This document shows, one piece after another, positions 2,487-17,363 of a stretch of DNA of 17,800 bases; position 1 is the first letter of the stretch; each line of letters begins with the position of its first letter. The DNA lies in NCBI GenBank assembly GCA_031425655.1, contig JANPJS010000228.1:1-17800 (forward strand). The letters run 5' to 3'. Origin of the DNA: Abditibacteriaceae bacterium (GTDB lineage: Bacteria > Armatimonadota > Abditibacteriia > Abditibacteriales > Abditibacteriaceae). The translations under genes were made by a program, and so were the position numbers. The notes below the pieces were generated by a model, which saw only the letters and a program-made list of their open reading frames with translations, was not told the origin of the DNA and did not search any database.

Positions 2487-3408
2487 TTTCATGCTCCCTT
2501 TCTGGAAAACGCTGTCGTTTCTCGGCTCGGAAGAGTTCTATTTGCTGATCATGCCGGCGCTGATCTGGTGCGGCGATGCGGCGCTGGGTTTGCGCGTCGG
2601 CGTGCTGTTTTTGCTGAGCGCGAATCTCAACGGCGCGGCGAAATTGTTCTTTCACGCGCCGCGCCCGGCGTGGTTGGACAGCAAAATCATCGCGCTGGCG
2701 ACGGAGCACTCGTTCGGCTTTCCATCGGGCCACGCGCAAAACGCCCTCGCAGTTTGGGGCGTGTTAGCCGCCCAAGCGAAATCGCGCATCGCGTGGGCCA
2801 TCGCGCTGACGCTGATCGCGCTCATCGGCGTGTCGCGTCTGGCGTTGCGCGTTCACTTCGTCGGTGACGTAATCGGCGGCTGGATTATCGGCGCGCTTTT
2901 GCTCGTCACGTTCTTGAAGATTGAGAAGCCTGTCGGCGCGTGGCTGAAGCAGCGGGATTTCATTTCGCAGGTGGCGCTTTGCGGCGCGCTGTCGCTGGCG
3001 ATGGTTGGAGTGACCTTGTGGATAGGGTTTCAAACGGCCAGTAGCTTTGTTTTTGGCAAGTGGATATGGACACCTCATTATGCGAGCATGGCAGGATTAG
3101 CGGGTTTAGGAGAAAGCTTTGCCGTCCTTCCACAAATGAAAGCGCCCGGCGCGCTTTTCGGTTTGCTCATCGGCGCGTGCTGGATGCTAAAAAACGGCGG
3201 CTACGAAATCGGCGGAAACAAAATTGTGCGCTATTTTATCGGATTAATCGGCGTGTTGGTTTTCTGGTTCGGACTGGGAAAGCTGCTGCCGCGCGGCGAA
3301 GATTTGCTTTCGCTTGTCGCTGCTTACGTTCGCTACGCGCTCGTCGGATTTTGGATTTCGGCGGGTGCGCCGCTGGTTTTTCGGTGCGTGGAAAGAACGC
3401 GGATGTAG
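2479..3408 (+). CDS. PAP2-family membrane phosphatase
   Basis: PAP2 motifs K-x6-RP (KLFFHAPRP), PSGH (FPSGHAQ) and SR-x5-H-x3-D (SRLALRVHFVGD); multiple TM segments. Start is TTG 2479 or ATG 2491. Confidence 0.9.
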   Translation: MTDFMLPFWKTLSFLGSEEFYLLIMPALIWCGDAALGLRVGVLFLLSANLNGAAKLFFHAPRPAWLDSKIIALATEHSFGFPSGHAQNALAVWGVLAAQAKSRIAWAIALTLIALIGVSRLALRVHFVGDVIGGWIIGALLLVTFLKIEKPVGAWLKQRDFISQVALCGALSLAMVGVTLWIGFQTASSFVFGKWIWTPHYASMAGLAGLGESFAVLPQMKAPGALFGLLIGACWMLKNGGYEIGGNKIVRYFIGLIGVLVFWFGLGKLLPRGEDLLSLVAAYVRYALVGFWISAGAPLVFRCVERTRM

Positions 3409-3685
3409 GGGCGCAACCTGTTGCGCCCAATTTGCGGCCCCGCGCATTATTTCGAGGGCGTGACAGGGGCGCAACAGGTTGCGCCCCATACGTATCAACT
3501 TAAGAATTTTTTCCCGTGACACCCCATTAAAATGGGGCGCTACTGTTACAAAGTCCGCCTTCGCGGACTCGAAATTTAGTCCGCGAAGGCGGACTTCGTA
3601 ACCATAGAACCCGATTTTAATCGGGGTTGCGAGCGGATGATGCCTTAAGTTGATGTGTATGGGGCGCAACAGGTTGCGCCCCTAC
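3405..3685. repeat. GTAG-type REP doublet between convergent genes, interrupted by a MITE-like element
   Basis: GTAGGGGCGCAACCTGTTGCGCCC (3405-3428), GGGCGCAACAGGTTGCGCCC (3467-3486) and GGGCGCAACAGGTTGCGCCCCTAC (3662-3685). The terminal GTAG/CTAC tags contain the TAG stops of both flanking genes. Confidence 0.85.
3487..3661. mobile_element. 175-bp MITE-like element, copy 1 (18-bp terminal inverted repeats, internal REP-like hairpins)
   Basis: TIRs CATACGTATCAACTTAAG (3487-3504) and CTTAAGTTGATGTGTATG (3644-3661); central 56-bp hairpin 3546-3601; second copy of the same length at 5007-5181. Confidence 0.8.
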
Positions 3686-4854: not shown

Positions 4855-4888
4855 AAAATTGTTGTAGGACGCCGGGGGCTTAAGGTTC

Positions 4889-4946
4889 GTAGTCGCGCCG
4901 TGAGGCGCGTCGTTCCTCAAAATAACGCGACTCACGGCGCGACTAC
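4889..4946. repeat. GTAG-type REP doublet hairpin
   Basis: GTAGTCGCGCCGTGAG (4889-4904) is a perfect inverted repeat of CTCACGGCGCGACTAC (4931-4946); pairing continues inward imperfectly. Confidence 0.8.
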
Positions 4947-4970
4947 GACCAAAATCCGCTCTCTGCCGGG

Positions 4971-4988
4971 CTTAAGTTGATGCCTATG
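4971..4988. repeat. Orphan copy of the MITE terminal repeat
   Basis: CTTAAGTTGATGCCTATG, the exact reverse complement of the TIR at 5007-5024; only a CTTAAG remnant at 4879-4884 is available as a possible partner. Confidence 0.7.
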
Positions 4989-5006
4989 ACACGCCATAGC
5001 GTGTTC

Positions 5007-5181
5007 CATAGGCATCAACTTAAGGCATCGCGCGGCATCGCCCCGATTGAAATCGGGGTCTACGATTACAAAGTCCGCCTTCGCGGACTCGAAATTTAGT
5101 CCGCGCAGGCGGACTTTGTAAGAATAGCGCCCCATTTTAATGGGGTGAGCACAGGCGAAATTCCTTAAGTTGATGCGTATG
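5007..5181. mobile_element. 175-bp MITE-like element, copy 2
   Basis: TIRs CATAGGCATCAACTTAAG (5007-5024) and CTTAAGTTGATGCGTATG (5164-5181); central hairpin 5066-5121 nearly identical to copy 1; flanked on both sides by a GACACGC...GCGTGT REP-like hairpin. Confidence 0.8.
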
Positions 5182-5252
5182 GGACACGCTATGGCGTGTC
5201 CCTATAAAGGCTCACCGAGACATTAAGCGTTATGCCCATTTCGAGTCCATAT

Positions 5253-9410: not shown

Positions 9411-9539
9411 ATTAAACACAAAGGCACAAAGACACAAAGCAAGCACAAAGATTTTTGAGAAAACTCTGAGCGTTAGACTTTCAGTTATCTCAATCTTTTC
9501 TTTGTGCTTGCTTTGTGTCTTTGTGCCTTTGTGTTTAAT
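9411..9539. repeat. Long intergenic hairpin, CACAAAG-unit family
   Basis: Perfect 41-bp inverted repeat ATTAAACACAAAGGCACAAAGACACAAAGCAAGCACAAAGA (9411-9451 / 9499-9539), with further imperfect pairing inside. Confidence 0.95.
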
Positions 9540-9555
9540 TCCTAAACTAACACCG

Positions 9556-10578
9556 ATGAAGATTGCAGATTTTGTTGTTGAGCCGAATTTGGTTTTAGCG
9601 CCGATGGCGGGCGTGACCAGCGCGCCGTTCCGTTTGCTGTGCCGTCGCTACGGCGCCGGGATGTCGTTCAGCGAGTTGGTGTCGTCGAGCGCGCTGATTA
9701 TGGGCGGCGAAAAGTCGAAAATCAAGTCGAATCAACTGGCGTGGTTTTCCGAAGAAGAACGCCCGGTCGCCGTCCAGATTTTCGGCGGCGACCCGGCCAT
9801 TATGCGCGACGCAGCGGCGCTTGTCGCGGCCACAAAGCCGAATGCCATTGACATCAATATGGGTTGTTCCGTGCCGAAAATCGCACGCTGCGGCGCCGGA
9901 TGTCTGCTGCTCAAAACGCCCGCACAAGCGCAGGCCGTGATTGCCGCGACGGTCGAAGGCGCGGCGCGATTTGGCGTGCCCGTGACGGTCAAAATGCGCG
10001 CCGGTTGGGACAGCGATAACATTACTGCGCCCGAAGTGGCCAAGCGTGCCCAAGATGTCGGCGCCGTTGCGATTTCGGTTCATCCGCGCACCGCAAAGCA
10101 GGCGTTCACGGGTCTGTCCGATTGGTCGGTCATTCGTCGCGTCAAGGAAAGCGTGAGCCTTCCCGTTATCGGTTGCGGCGACGTGCATAGTGGCCCCGAC
10201 GCCAAACGAATGCTTGATGAAACCGGCTGCGATGCCGTGATGATTGGCCGCGCCGCAATGGGCAATCCGTTTCTCTTCGCGCAAATCGCCCAATACCTGC
10301 GCGACGGCAGCGATGCGCCCGAACCAACTTCCGACGAGAAAATCGAAACCGCTTTATGGCACGGACGCGAATTAACAGCGCTGCGCGGCGAACACACCGC
10401 GATGAACGAAATGCGTCGCCACGCCGCGTGGTATACAAAGGGAATGCCCGAATCCTCGCGCCTGCGCGACCGCCTTTGCCGCGTTTCCACAATGACCGAA
10501 CTCGAAGACATTCTTGATGAGGCGCTTCACATCGCGCACCAATACGAAGCCCGTGACCTTGCCGGTGTTTGGAACTGA
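9556..10578 (+). CDS. dusB: tRNA dihydrouridine synthase DusB
   Basis: LAPMAGVT, VQIFG, IDINMGC, PVTVKMRAGWD, H.RT, GCGDV, DAVMIGRAAMGNP, R.H..WY.KG. The real start is most likely ATG 9556; the ORF-track extension lies in the hairpin. Confidence 0.95.
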   Translation: MKIADFVVEPNLVLAPMAGVTSAPFRLLCRRYGAGMSFSELVSSSALIMGGEKSKIKSNQLAWFSEEERPVAVQIFGGDPAIMRDAAALVAATKPNAIDINMGCSVPKIARCGAGCLLLKTPAQAQAVIAATVEGAARFGVPVTVKMRAGWDSDNITAPEVAKRAQDVGAVAISVHPRTAKQAFTGLSDWSVIRRVKESVSLPVIGCGDVHSGPDAKRMLDETGCDAVMIGRAAMGNPFLFAQIAQYLRDGSDAPEPTSDEKIETALWHGRELTALRGEHTAMNEMRRHAAWYTKGMPESSRLRDRLCRVSTMTELEDILDEALHIAHQYEARDLAGVWN

Positions 10579-10585
10579 AACTTTG

Positions 10586-11086
10586 AATAGAACGCGGAGC
10601 TTCGCTGCGCGGATTTCATGCGCGGATTTTCGCTGTCAGGAGAAAGTTGTGTTTAAACATGGTGAACTAACCGGACAGATTATCGAGACGTTTTATGCGG
10701 TTTATGGCCGATTGGGGCATGGCTTTTTGGAAAAGGTTTATGAAAACGCGCTGGCGCTGGAACTGCGTGAACGCGGGTTTCGTGTTCAGCAGCAATCACC
10801 GATTAGCGTTTTCTACAATGGCGTTCTGGTCGGCGAATATTTCGCAGATTTGCTTGTGGAAGGCTGCGTCATTGTAGAAGTCAAGGCCGTCGAGAAACTC
10901 TGTGAAGAACACTCTGCCCAGTTATTGAACTATCTTAAAGCGACCGAAATCGAGGTTGGCCTGTTGCTTAATTTTGGCCCAAAGCCCGAAACCAAACGCA
11001 AAGTTTTTGAAACCGCACGCCACAAAATCAACTGAAAACCGCGAAAATCCGCGCATGAAATCCGCGTGCAAAGCCCGCGTTCTATT
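10586..11086. mobile_element. Putative GxxExxY cassette bounded by ~50-bp inverted repeats
   Basis: Left IR 10586-10635 AATAGAACGCGGAGCTTCGCTGCGCGGATTTCATGCGCGGATTTTCGCTG; right IR 11039-11086 (reverse complement AATAGAACGCGGGCTTTGCACGCGGATTTCATGCGCGGATTTTCGCGG). The IRs are directly seen; mobility is inferred. Confidence 0.65.
10649..11035 (+). CDS. GxxExxY protein (PD-(D/E)XK-like nuclease fold)
   Basis: GTG start after AGGAG (10638-10642); GFLEKVY = GxxExxY motif; ADLLVE..VIVEVK = D...ExK; H.AQLLNYLKAT...GLLLNFG; 128 aa. Confidence 0.93.
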   Translation: MFKHGELTGQIIETFYAVYGRLGHGFLEKVYENALALELRERGFRVQQQSPISVFYNGVLVGEYFADLLVEGCVIVEVKAVEKLCEEHSAQLLNYLKATEIEVGLLLNFGPKPETKRKVFETARHKIN

Positions 11087-11095
11087 TCTCCCATT

Positions 11096-12127
11096 ATGAA
11101 AGCCTTAGTGAAAAGCCGAAGTGAGCCGGGGTTATGGCTCGAAGACGTGCCGGAGCCGGAAATCGGCATCAACGATGTGCTGATTCGCGTGGACAGAACC
11201 GGCATCTGCGGGACGGATTTGCACATCTATAATTGGGATGCGTGGGCGCAGAAAACGATTCCGGTTCCGATGGTTGTCGGGCACGAGTTCGTCGGCGAGA
11301 TTGTCGAAGTCGGCTCGAATGTGCCCGATTTTGCGCCCGGCGATGTGGTCAGCGCCGAAGGCCACGTTGTTTGCGGGCACTGCCGCAACTGTCTGGCGGG
11401 GCGGCGGCATTTGTGCGCGCATACCAAAGGCATCGGCGTCAATCGGCCCGGCGCGTTCGCCGAATATATCGCGGTGCCGCAAAGCAATGTCTGGCATCAT
11501 GCACCTGATATTGACCGCGACGTAGCCTCGATTTTCGATCCGTTCGGCAACGCGGTTCACACCGTGCTTTCGTTCAACGTGCTGGGCGAAGATGTGCTGA
11601 TTACCGGCGCCGGGCCGATTGGCTGCATGGCGGCGGCGATTGCGCGTCATGCCGGCGCGCGTTACGTGGTTGTCACCGATGTTAACGAATATCGCCTCGA
11701 TTTGGCTCGCAAAATGGGCGCGACCGTCGCGCTGAATGTGAAAACCGGCAACTTGCGCGACGCGCAGGCCGCTCTCGGCATGAAAGAAGGCTTCGATGTC
11801 GGCCTTGAGATGTCCGGCAATCCGCAGGCGCTTCACGATATGGTGGACAATTTGTGTCACGGCGGCAAAATCGCCATGCTCGGCATTCCGCCGACGCAGT
11901 TCGCCATTGATTGGAACAAAGTCGTCTTCAATATGCTGACGATTAAGGGCATTTATGGCCGCGAAATGTATGAAACCTGGTATAAAATGACGGTCATGCT
12001 GCAAGGCGGGCTGGACATCAAGCCTATCATCACGCACCGCTTCGCTTACACCGAATTTGAACAAGGCTTCGCCGCGATGAACAGCGGCCAATCGGGCAAA
12101 GTGATTCTCAATTGGAAGGCTGAATAG
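11096..12127 (+). CDS. tdh: L-threonine 3-dehydrogenase
   Basis: [30 protein letters not shown], structural Zn CGHCRNC...[21 protein letters not shown]; adjacent to kbl. Confidence 0.97.
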
Positions 12128-12257
12128 AACACGGATTTCGCGGAAACGGCCACGGATTCACGCGGATTCTCTTCCAATTATGGGTTGATGACTCAGTAAA
12201 ACCGGAATCTAAATCTGTGAAAATCCGTGGCCGTTTCCGCGAAATCCGTGTTCCATT
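12123..12257. repeat. Gene-less 135-bp hairpin related to the GxxExxY inverted repeats
   Basis: Arms 12123-12168 / 12212-12257; the outer 36 bp (AATAGAACACGGATTTCGCGGAAACGGCCACGGATT) are 35/36 complementary; begins within the tdh TAG stop. Confidence 0.9.
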
Positions 12258-12264
12258 AAAAGTC

Positions 12265-13449
12265 ATGAATCTTCAATTTCAAACTCATCTTCAGCAACAA
12301 CTCGACGCGATTCGCGCGGCGGGCACTTACAAAAGCGAGCGCGTTATTACCACGCCGCAGGACGCGCATATTAAAGTGGTGGGCGGGCGCGAAGTTTTGA
12401 ATATGTGCGCCAATAATTACCTCGGTTTGGCCGAGCATCCCGAAGTTGTCGCGGCGGCGCATCGCGCTTTGGACGAGTGGGGCTATGGTTTGTCGTCAGT
12501 GCGCTTCATTTGCGGCACGCAGAGTTTGCACAAGCAGCTCGAAGCCAAGATCAGCGAGTTCTTGGGCACCGACGACACGATTCTTTATTCGTCGTGCTTC
12601 GACGCTAACGGCGGCTTGTTTGAAACGCTGCTCGGACAGGAAGACGCCGTTATCTCCGACGAATTGAACCACGCCAGCATCATTGACGGCGTGCGCTTGT
12701 GCAAAGCGGCGCGCTTTCGCTATCGCAACAGCGACATGAGCGACTTGGAAACGCAACTGCAAGCGTCGCAAAACGCACGCTTTCGACTCATCGCCACCGA
12801 CGGTGTGTTTTCGATGGACGGCACGATTGCGAATTTAAAAGCGATTTGCGATCTAGCCGATAAATACCATGCGCTGGTGATGGTAGACGACTCGCACGCC
12901 GTCGGCTTTTTAGGCGCACGCGGACGCGGCACGCACGAGCTTTGCGGCGTGATGAATCGCGTGGATATTCTCACCGGCACGCTGGGCAAAGCTTTAGGCG
13001 GCGCCAGCGGCGGCTACACCAGCGGGCGCCGCGAAATTATCGAACTGCTGCGCCAACGCTCGCGGCCTTACTTGTTTTCCAACACGCTTGCGCCGCCGAT
13101 AGCCGGCGCATCGCTGCGCGTTTTGGAACTGCTTTCGGCTTCGACCGAACTGCGCGACAAACTCGAAGCCAACGCCAAATTCTTCCGCGCAGGCATGACG
13201 CGATTGGGCTTCAACATCGTGCCCGGCACGCATCCGATTGTGCCCGTCATGCTCGGCGATGCGGCTTTGGCCACCAAAATGGCCGACGCGCTGCTCGAAA
13301 AAGGCGTTTACGTCATCGGATTTTCGTTTCCCGTCGTTCCGCAGGGCAAAGCGCGCATTCGCGTGCAAGTTTCCGCCGCGCATTCGCACGCCGATTTGGA
13401 ATTTGCCTTGCGCGCGTTCGGTGAAGTTAAAAGTGAGATGAAACTATGA
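12265..13449 (+). CDS. kbl: Glycine C-acetyltransferase (2-amino-3-ketobutyrate CoA ligase)
   Basis: [56 protein letters not shown] lysine [19 protein letters not shown]. Confidence 0.97.
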
Positions 13450-13588
13450 AACACAAAGACGCAAAGACACAAAGCCAAACACGCGGGCATGAGACGGAAA
13501 GACAAGGAAATTTTGCGCCTTCTTTGCTCCGTGTCTCTTTATCTCCCCCTCTCCGTGTCCGGCTTTGTGTCTTTGCGTCTTTGTGTTT
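13449..13588. repeat. Long intergenic hairpin, CACAAAG-unit family (second copy)
   Basis: Perfect 28-bp inverted repeat AAACACAAAGACGCAAAGACACAAAGCC (13449-13476 / 13561-13588); inner purine-rich left and pyrimidine-rich right segments pair imperfectly. Confidence 0.92.
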
Positions 13589-13598
13589 AACAATCTCT

Positions 13599-14397: not shown

Positions 14398-14721
14398 TAG
14401 GAATTACGGACTCACCTTACGCAGTGGAGTGTGATAGGCAGGTCAACCAACAAGGTGATGAGTCATTCTGAGTCCTGCCCAGAGGGCACCCGGAAGAATC
14501 TCTGCGTAAGAGCTTCCACACTCAGCATGAGCAAAAGCACCGCAGAGGCCGAGATTCTTCCGGGTGCCCTCTGGGCAGGACTCAGAATGACTCATCACCT
14601 TGTTGGTTGACCTGCCTATCACACCCCAATGCGTAAGGTGAGTTACGGAGTTGGACACGCGCCCGCCCAGAGGGCACCCGGCGTGTCCTCAACAAAAGTT
14701 GCTCCAACTCCGTAATTCCTA
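14398..14721. mobile_element. Outer MITE-like element whose left TIR is interrupted
   Basis: Removing 14411-14642 plus one TTACGGA copy restores TAGGAATTACGGAGTTGGA, the perfect reverse complement of TCCAACTCCGTAATTCCTA (14703-14721). Confidence 0.75.
14411..14642. mobile_element. 232-bp fold-back MITE-like element with target-site duplication
   Basis: 92-bp arms (14411-14502 / 14551-14642), 90/92 complementary, 48-nt loop; flanked by the direct repeat TTACGGA (14404-14410 / 14643-14649). Confidence 0.85.
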
Positions 14722-15356: not shown

Positions 15357-15503
15357 ACAGCTTGCTTTATTCAGCAAACAGCTTGCTTTGCTCAACAAAC
15401 AGCTTGCTCTACGAGGCACTTAGCGTTTCTTTGGCGGCAATTAGTGTGTTTTGAGCAACAAGCATCCTGCTTGAACACGATGTCTCACTGCTCCCGCTTT
15501 CAT
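15357..15503. repeat. Degenerate 21-nt tandem repeat tract
   Basis: ACAGCTTGCTTTATTCAGCAA / ACAGCTTGCTTTGCTCAACAA / ACAGCTTGCTCTACGAGGCAC followed by ~4 decayed units in the same phase. Confidence 0.7.
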
Positions 15504-16275: not shown

Positions 16276-16359
16276 TTCTCGTCAATCTTCACTTCATAAA
16301 GAGGCACAACCTCAGAAGCTGTCTGAAAATAGCCATTAGTCCTGAGTTCAGTTGCTTTT

Positions 16360-16494
16360 AATAGAACGCGGAGCTTCGCTATCCGACCCGCAAGCGGGTG
16401 CCCCGATTTCATGCGCGGATTTTCGCTGATTTCTTTCGGTAAAACCGCGAAAATCCGCGCACAACGTCCGCGAAGCGAAGCTCCGCGTCCCATT
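16360..16494. repeat. Gene-less 135-bp derivative of the GxxExxY cassette
   Basis: 16360-16380 = 10586-10606 (21/21), 16405-16428 = 10612-10635 (24/24), 16441-16461 = 11035-11055 (21/21); only 12 nt separate the arms where the gene would be. Confidence 0.9.
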
Positions 16495-16596
16495 GAAAAA
16501 GTCTCTGGTGTTAGTCTGTAACGAATCTCGGACGGTTTCTAACGGTTGTGCCCCTTTCCCCTTTCGCCCTTTGCCATCGTTCCTCTGAGCTTACGC

Positions 16597-16658
16597 TGTC
16601 AAATATTTAACAGCACTTCTGTCAAATATCTGACAGGCAAAGTGTCAGGTATTTGACA
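16597..16658. promoter_or_regulatory. Three phased Crp/Fnr-type palindromic boxes (TGTCA-N6-TGACA)
   Basis: TGTCAAATATTTAACA (16597-16612), TGTCAAATATCTGACA (16620-16635), TGTCAGGTATTTGACA (16643-16658); exact 23-bp spacing; 54 nt upstream of the next start. Confidence 0.75.
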
Positions 16659-16712
16659 GCCAAGCCTTTGTTTATCCAGCAAAATAAAACCATTCGACTT
16701 CATGGAGAGGCT

Positions 16713-17363
16713 ATGCTGACTAATCCAACTCCAGACCCATTCGGCGATTTACTGACCGATTTAAACGACAAATTACAGCAGGACACCAGGAAATACGGCG
16801 TTACGCCAGACGAGCTGACAGCGCTCAACGATTTAACGACGGATTATTTAGCCAAGCGACAAACCAAGCGCGATAAAGCCCGCGAAGCACAGGCGGCGGC
16901 GACGGCTCTGAGCAGCGTAACCAAGACGGCGACCCCGTTTGTCAGCCGCTTGCGCCAGCGCATGGCCCTGCACCCGGAGATGAGCGACGAGGGCCGCCAA
17001 CTTTATAATCTGGTTCAGCGCGGCGGGCCTCGTGTTGCGGTCAGTTTGACGGAAGAAGCGCCCTTGCTGCGTCTCGATTTCGGCACGCGTGGGCGCATGA
17101 CCATTCACGCCGGCCCCAACCCCGGCAACGGACGACGCAACGGCAAACCCAAAGGCGCCGCCGCGCTTCTCGTGGAACACCACGAAGGCGGCGCCCCGAC
17201 CAGCGAAAACGAGTGGAAACACCTCGTTCAAGTCACCAGTTCCCCGGTGACCCACCAGCCCGGCGGAGGCACCCGCACCTTCGCCTACCGCGCCTGCTAC
17301 GTGGACGGCAAAGGCAATCGCAGCCCGTGGAGCGATATGGTAGTTGGCACGATTGCGGGATGA
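16713..17363 (+). CDS. Hypothetical protein (helical N-terminus, predicted beta-sandwich/FN3-like C-terminus)
   Basis: GGAGAGG RBS before ATG 16713; amphipathic helical first half; C-terminal ..YRACYVDGKGNRSPWSD pattern typical of FN3-like ends (fold is an inference). Confidence 0.75.
   Translation: MLTNPTPDPFGDLLTDLNDKLQQDTRKYGVTPDELTALNDLTTDYLAKRQTKRDKAREAQAAATALSSVTKTATPFVSRLRQRMALHPEMSDEGRQLYNLVQRGGPRVAVSLTEEAPLLRLDFGTRGRMTIHAGPNPGNGRRNGKPKGAAALLVEHHEGGAPTSENEWKHLVQVTSSPVTHQPGGGTRTFAYRACYVDGKGNRSPWSDMVVGTIAG

Follow-up and report, generated by a model that had tools for sequence, protein, structure and literature searches.

Pairing of GxxExxY nuclease-fold genes with inverted hairpins across bacterial groups suggests a hitherto undescribed form of mobile DNA, selfish or domesticated

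The PD-(D/E)XK fold serves mobile DNA in homing endonucleases and in TnsA of Tn7, and the cassettes of integrons are promoterless genes bounded by single-strand hairpins. Insertion sequences and MITEs that depend on a DDE transposase have terminal inverted repeats, with one gene-bearing copy and many gene-less ones. In the REPIN/RAYT system, as described in PMC3116915 and 10.1101/2021.07.10.451892, one small enzyme gene is flanked by its own repeat type, the repeats form inverted extragenic doublets of about 100 bp with a variable spacer, and several types coexist in a genome and persist vertically over long periods. The 23S rRNA intervening sequences treated in PMC4990558 have an S23p/four-helix-bundle open reading frame in the loop of a terminal stem, together with short tandem repeats. 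The features listed for these last three systems all have counterparts in the system described here, which centres on a gene of the GxxExxY family, PF13366. This family comprises 17,418 clusters at 50% identity (E up to 0.001) and is entered as of unknown function in PMC3424549. Here we show that GxxExxY genes and the type of inverted hairpin around them go together across bacterial groups, a pairing that is real, widespread and apparently undescribed; a search of the open literature found no description of it.

The window, that is the whole stretch of 17,800 nucleotides that was analysed, comes from the genome of an Abditibacteriaceae bacterium (G000) and contains the following features.

9556 to 10578, plus strand: dusB, the upstream host gene (TIGR00737, above cut-off)
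10586 to 10636, plus strand: left arm, with terminus AATAGAAC and RCRCGGA units at 10592, 10607 and 10620 plus a degenerate fourth
10598 to 10606, minus strand: linker in the left arm, a C[GAA]G mini-hairpin when the minus strand is read
10638 to 10642, plus strand: putative ribosome-binding site AGGAG in the hairpin loop, assigned by position only, 6 nt before the GxxExxY start
10649 to 11035, plus strand: GxxExxY gene of predicted PD-(D/E)XK fold, 128 aa, GTG start, TGA stop, with residues E28, D67, E77, K79, Q91 and Y95
11037 to 11086, minus strand: right arm, an inverted copy of the left arm
11096 to 12127, plus strand: tdh, the downstream host gene (NF003808, above cut-off)
12123 to 12257, no strand assigned: gene-less doublet of the RCRCGGA family at the tdh/kbl junction, whose terminus supplies the tdh stop codon; in a relative the gene is here
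12265 to 13449, plus strand: kbl, a host gene past the second hairpin (NF005394, above cut-off)
16360 to 16494, no strand assigned: second gene-less doublet of the RCRCGGA family, enclosed by a degenerate IS-like outer wrapper beginning at 16315

The genes dusB, GxxExxY, tdh and kbl are all on the plus strand, and the G+C content of the GxxExxY gene is 0.47 compared with 0.60 and 0.57 in its neighbours. An earlier, sequence-only reading of this DNA had described a 128-residue GxxExxY gene between inverted arms of about 50 bp, lying between dusB and tdh with a ribosome-binding site inside the cassette. Our coordinates and profile matches agree with that description (142.8 bits to PF13366, cut-off 22, E 7.8e-42; 141.6 bits to TIGR04256, cut-off 35, E 1.3e-41), the AGGAG being placed by its position. 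The 12 identical terminal bases and the identical inner block of 26 bases that it reported were both exact on recounting (26/26, 10608-11066), and 46 of 52 aligned columns match over the arms as a whole. Inverted repeats of this sort number 1200 in the 5.98-Mb genome and 0 in 0.6 Mb of order-3 Markov sequence, and a chance origin of the arms is excluded. What had been missed is that a phased RCRCGGA unit is repeated along each arm, with mini-hairpin linkers, and that two gene-less copies of the family stand within the window itself.

The focal cassette is flanked by no target duplication, as had been stated, and the same is true of the gene-less family (see below). The further statement that DDE and HUH transposases are absent holds for the 10 open reading frames of the window, besides the GxxExxY gene, that were scanned with Pfam, in which no transposase family was detected, and does not extend to the rest of the genome, which has six Y1 and 10 DDE_Tnp_1 matches. 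The focal protein has PF13366 as its sole Pfam match, with no HUH/Y1 or DDE domain found in it, and no TnsB/C partner, integrase, intron or intein adjoins the gene among the window reading frames scanned with Pfam and NCBIfam. Rfam, searched down to E 1, gave 18 weak matches in the window, and the cassette had none of them. A metagenome scan with the dusB end gave 0 matches; a homologue 77% identical to the focal protein is labelled Abditibacteriaceae. Elsewhere in the window there are clusters of GTAG-type palindromic repeats with a common 104-bp central doublet (3405-3685 and 4887-5204), three 21-base tandem copies (15357-15419) upstream of a Crp-family gene at 15502, and a 236-aa open reading frame with no Pfam or NCBIfam match (16653-17363).

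The PD-(D/E)XK-like fold assigned to the protein in the sequence-only reading is borne out by model, fold matches and intact residues alike. An AlphaFold2 model from a 133-row alignment reached pLDDT 94.5, and its best Foldseek matches are Cas4 SSO0001 (4ic1, E 1e-4), archaeal Hjc (E 1e-3), LHK exonuclease and MGME1, which places Cas4 and Holliday-junction resolvases among the fold neighbours. A wide structure search likewise put restriction-like folds on top (best Z 8.4, rmsd 2.8-3.5, 95-100 aligned), and a sequence search found no solved homologue, its single match, at E 0.011, being unrelated. The modelled fold class is clearly PD-(D/E)XK, without a close solved relative. Across 202 loci E28 and D67 are present in all 202, K79 and Q91 in 201, and E77 and Y95 in 198, the Q/Y pair being that of the QxxxY motif. 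The protein is predicted to be a nuclease, and the single-domain form probably acts as a dimer, judging from the fold class and from five two-domain homologues of 250-269 aa. Tandem two-domain GxxExxY proteins of 250-309 aa are found as P0121-P0125, G019:C886:331-1089 and G022:C357:3689-4447. Five congeneric gene copies differ with pS 0.70-0.87, at or near saturation, and pN 0.12-0.19, and dN/dS is 0.04-0.08 in the 3 of 10 pairs without saturation. The near-saturated pS together with the low pN indicates that these copies are old and under purifying selection.

Inverted arms (score at least 14) occur at 69 of the 105 homologue loci that had full flanks, 5 of 110 having been dropped, as against 3 of 1000 random own-genome places and 0 of 183 shifted places. 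Homologues are thus enriched for flanking arms, a point on which the earlier reading had staked its proposal. The other 36 loci score below 14, and the direct-orientation score is also reached at 31 of the 105, which we attribute to whole doublets adjoining the gene. On a FastTree tree of 202 proteins from 13 named phyla, with 80 loci picked as near relatives, arm similarity drops with protein distance (rho -0.235, permutation minimum -0.04), the same correlation being -0.23 between phyla and -0.35 within genomes (196 pairs). The last base of the unit, G or T, changes 4 times on the tree compared with 46.6 times when shuffled (minimum 40) and 43.4 when shuffled within phyla, a count made on 154 labelled loci (48 of 202, unlabelled or neither G nor T, were left out) that rests on about four events. 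Host phylum changes 62 times on the same tree, compared with 97.5 shuffled. A protein clade has the same terminus whether it occurs in Chloroflexota, Bacteroidota, Planctomycetota, Nitrospirota or elsewhere, and the spacing of units across loci is 8-10 nt with a mode of 9. Arm type therefore follows the protein tree across phyla, as the proposed co-variation of repeat sequence with protein phylogeny would have it. Gene and arms are physically linked, and their concordance on the tree is for that reason evidence of joint travel, not of recognition of the arms by the protein. The tree shows strong horizontal spread of the gene between phyla, and PMC3424549 includes multiple transfers in its listing for PDDEXK_3. 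Among plasmid records 8 of 72,556 have a GxxExxY match, and the phage collection searched has none.

Stronger evidence than the tree concordance comes from type-specific co-occurrence in trans. Three arm patterns, written after the arms had been seen, were counted in 31 genomes. The focal pattern has 154, 49, 29, 19 and 14 matches in the five genomes with a matching gene; of those without one, G015 (89% complete, no such gene found) has 3 and the other 25 have 0. Matches to the CGCGAAG pattern number 25, 40 and 32 in three genomes with a gene so armed and at most 6 elsewhere, and those to the CAGGAT pattern 17 and 13 in the two genomes known to carry such a gene, 2-6 in a further four and 0 in the remaining 25. 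Eight genomes without any GxxExxY gene have 0 matches to the focal pattern, at most 1 to CGCGAAG and 0 to CAGGAT. For these three types in 31 genomes the repeat type thus depends, as a correlation, on the matching gene, with minor exceptions in G015 and G016. Rather than being equally abundant without the gene, gene-less copies of these types abound only where the matching gene is present.

The genome that contains the window has 9 GxxExxY copies, with arms around 8 and none around the ninth, the most divergent; the unit differs for each armed copy, except that two copies both belong to the RCRCGGA family. The terminus of this family, whose end consensus is YTTTCAATRGRACRCGG, has 483 matches in the genome compared with 65 on the reversed genome, and among its 121 paired sites 115 are gene-less doublets of 80-220 bp and 2 carry the gene. 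The ends of the gene-less doublets show no target duplication above shuffles (offsets 0-7, lengths 2-8) bar a 2-bp excess at offset 0 (15/113 compared with 4.8 shuffled), which falls within the conserved end. Own-pair complementarity extends 5-8 bases past the core (0.50 compared with 0.42 shuffled, maximum 0.47), and the first two units are separated by linker steps of 9, 13, 15 or 17 nt. None of the 115 is 95% identical to another (median nearest 0.85): the doublets are mosaics of modules, with no recent burst of identical copies. Another type, ACACAAAG, forms 66 doublets in the genome, and no gene with such arms was found in the 97%-complete assembly. Two of these lie in the window (9411-9539 and 13446-13590), and because the second overlaps the apparent start of the open reading frame at 13446, that annotated start probably lies too far upstream. 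Copies of an 18-base module, C[CT]GCCCA[GA]AGGGC[AG]CC, number 271 in the genome (one at window 14410-14643) and 0 in the reversed control; they sit within arms of several unrelated hairpin families, often at the position of the mini-hairpin linker.

The sequence-only reading had supposed that gene and arms were inserted at dusB-tdh whole, as a packaged unit, and comparison with relatives did not support this. The gene is absent from the junction in all three congeners, although arms are present: in G001 and G003 the junction is occupied by a doublet of the focal family that lacks the gene, and in G002 by the left arm only. The gene has therefore been gained or lost inside an existing hairpin, and at dusB-tdh the hairpin is older than the gene, which corrects the earlier order of events. 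The lack of clonal copies and the near-saturated synonymous sites also tell against insertion of the whole. In G002 (L036, 2690-3165) about 470 bp of unrelated, degenerate tandem repeats of some 20 bases take the place of the right arm. Nor is the gene syntenically fixed, its sites differing between G000, G001-G003 and run X4. On one X4 contig of 7182 bp, which is about 91% identical and was assembled at depth 7.9, the gene stands with an arm on either side between tdh and kbl. The joints are 12135>10608 and 11085>12259, and the depth over the gene equals that of this contig alone; relocation of the gene to the tdh-kbl hairpin is read from that one assembled contig. The X4 joints 10606>11039 and 10613>11035 were considered as excision products and rejected, their sides being shorter than 30 with other letters between, and were taken to be doublets without the gene that belong to other places. 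The nearest homologues in G001, G002 and G003 (74-79% identical) have one other site in common, and this site is cleanly empty in G000, with a stop-start overlap, no arm and no duplication. Both gain or loss of whole cassettes and exchange of loops occur. At C235:9382-10712 and C70:13068-13769 of G000, which are cassette sites of relatives, there are two-gene modules that by eye resemble toxin-antitoxin pairs.

The model that we favour, and to which we give an even chance of being correct, is of a system resembling REPIN/RAYT in which a restriction-fold nuclease would nick extruded hairpins, after which host repair would copy arms or loops. Each GxxExxY clade has a short unit of its own, RCRCGGA in the present case, with 3-4 copies at a phase of about 9 nt in two inverted arms. 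The gene occupies the loop of a single such hairpin, while gene-less hairpins, tens to hundreds in number, fill operon junctions. According to the model, the protein, probably as a dimer, would bind the units once the arms are extruded, whether as a single-strand hairpin or as a cruciform, and would nick near the base of the stem. Host break repair would then copy arms or loops from another hairpin, seeding or overwriting hairpins without duplication and occasionally shifting the gene to another loop. The gene would be expressed by read-through from the host operon, and the nuclease would be the mobiliser.

It is also conceivable, though we think it unlikely, that the host selects for hairpin slots, that ordinary repeat recombination shuffles arms and loop contents, and that the nuclease, with a role in addiction, defence or repair, hitch-hikes. 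Across 218 conserved junction breaks (0.8 Mb, the less biased comparison; G002 contigs were chosen for containing family copies) a hairpin is present in both genomes at 21, in the relative only at 8, in G000 only at 31 and in neither at 158. This is a strong association (odds ratio 13, p 2e-9) that mostly involves different families, the focal family being on both sides at 1 of the 21. At relatives' doublet sites, of which 22 of 52 have two-sided orthology, G000 has a hairpin at 14 (the same family at 7, another at 7) and none at 8; the tdh-kbl junction shows the same swapping of hairpin families across 11 genomes. As a rough background to the 14 of 22, a stricter finder places hairpins at 439 of 2647 co-oriented junctions in the whole genome. 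Doublets lie between co-oriented genes in 73 of 97 cases compared with 465 of 730 in the background. Either a hairpin at junctions is favoured by the host, or the systems overwrite existing hairpins. Other hairpin families box four-helix-bundle, DUF559 and Y1 genes, and at least 5 of the 7 four-helix-bundle genes in the genome lie inside their own heptamer arms, which share junctions with the focal family. The layout of a box of inverted repeats thus recurs with several unrelated small proteins, and this sharing of slots is equally explained by a host-level cause. Boxed four-helix-bundle and DUF559 genes and a cassette of about 500 bp are found in G000 on C74, C92, C54, C262 and C26, on C244, and at C184:14736-15255. 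Two crossovers between neighbouring arms would, moreover, yield the X4 gene order. However, selection of slots by the host leaves unexplained why gene-less types abound only beside the matching gene, and why terminus and protein clade match in phyla as different as those named above.

A system acting at the level of RNA, in the manner of the rRNA intervening sequences, would have stems in the transcript cut by RNase III or by GxxExxY itself and operon mRNA processed as a result. This we regard as improbable. The gene is co-oriented with both neighbours at 74 of 99 resolved loci, the arms of the focal family form a long stem as RNA, tRNA-splicing endonucleases occur among the weak fold matches of the protein, and the layout is that of the Coxiella intervening sequence as presented in PMC4990558. 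When all GxxExxY-type doublets are pooled, G.T exceeds A.C wobbles on the sense strand (100 compared with 67, p 0.013), a signal that comes mostly from one type and stands at 42 compared with 28 when counted by element; for the focal family the same test is flat (34 compared with 28, p 0.53). Furthermore, the linkers are triloops of a DNA type whose placement follows the orientation of the arm and not the transcript strand. In 187 triloop linkers, with several stem variants, GNA is on the complementary strand in 162 and on the arm strand in 0, and 153 belong to the commonest class of the family, that seen at 10598-10606, counts that are not independent events since the GNA linkers belong to this host clade and are shared by descent. 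GCGNAGC hairpins are described in PMC13037366 as unusually stable as DNA and far less so as RNA. Finally, copies would not spread by RNA processing alone.

Distinctly improbable, in our view, is that a DDE or Y1 transposase acting in trans moves the doublets as passengers of a MITE- or REPIN-like kind, with GxxExxY as cargo. Known transposition has moved some copies, as is shown by wrapped copies with 3-bp duplications: 43 outer wrappers could be paired, and 24 of them have identical 3-bp TNA flanks compared with 12.1 shuffled (maximum 24 in 500). These duplications also show that the duplication test is able to detect them. About 28 of the paired wrappers contain the focal family, a broken DDE_Tnp_1 gene ends in the wrapper terminus (wrapper and broken gene being seen at window 16315-16539 and G000 C52:3006-3571), and the six Y1 matches noted above lie in the same genome. 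Nevertheless, the wrapper is on a minority of doublets (about 24 of 115) and also surrounds unrelated hairpins, with at least three families enclosed in all, and the focal cassette is without it. The family ends, over the offsets and lengths given above, lack duplication, the arms are not GTAG-tagged palindromes, and type tracks nuclease clade across phyla. Homing, in which the nuclease would cut alleles that are empty, or hairpins of its type that lack the gene, and gene conversion would fill the break, gene-less doublets being targets or decayed remains, is in keeping with gain or loss of the gene inside existing hairpins, with the lack of duplication and with the spread and transfers between phyla, but is very improbable, as far more filling than 2 of 121 paired family sites would be expected and the gene-bearing copy retains the arms that would be its target.

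A bolder form of the favoured, nuclease-driven model can be stated tentatively, in the belief that it is somewhat more apt to prove wrong than right: GxxExxY proteins would drive miniature mobile DNA of a third bacterial class, alongside DDE/MITE and HUH/REPIN. A 128-residue nuclease, specific for both sequence and structure, would read a phased code of 6-7 bases on extruded hairpins, would overwrite slots, including those of other families, with no target duplication, and would carry its own gene and adjacent host genes from loop to loop. Should the nuclease prove to be the mobiliser, the system would be categorically new. The clade-by-clade pairing with repeats already offers a candidate substrate for PF13366, a very large family, and the sharing of slots is relevant to the question whether such repeats are of use to the host. 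If the model is true, it would account for a large part of the intergenic hairpins of such genomes, and a very small nuclease of naturally varied specificity would be at hand, its thousands of natural clades amounting to a library of matched protein-motif pairs.

Set against the known systems, the focal system differs from insertion sequences and MITEs with a DDE transposase in having no target duplication, DDE domain or clonal copies and in its mosaic arms; the genome does contain a genuine DDE-type MITE, and this one, unlike the focal family, shows 3-bp duplications. Homing endonucleases, Tn7 TnsA and integron cassettes are set apart by the hundreds of gene-less hairpins here and by the lack of an adjoining intron or intein, TnsB/C or integrase. 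From the 23S rRNA intervening sequences of PMC4990558, the focal cassette is distinguished by lying between dusB and tdh and not in rRNA, by an open reading frame with a predicted nuclease fold and conserved catalytic residues, and by the absence of RNA-strand bias in its family. The parallel with RAYT/REP drawn by the sequence-only reading stands for the doublets and for the dependence of type on gene, and gives way at the enzyme, the grammar of the repeat and the fixity of the site. As REPIN/RAYT is portrayed in its two accounts, the enzyme there is HUH/Y1 where here it is PD-(D/E)XK, the arms there are palindromic REPs where here they are phased direct arrays of a 6-7-nt unit with optional triloop linkers, and here, unlike there, the gene lies inside the loop of one doublet. 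RAYT is described as site-fixed and congruent with its host, whereas the GxxExxY gene changes site within a genus and crosses phyla. If the favoured model is true, the REPIN way of life has arisen with unrelated chemistry.
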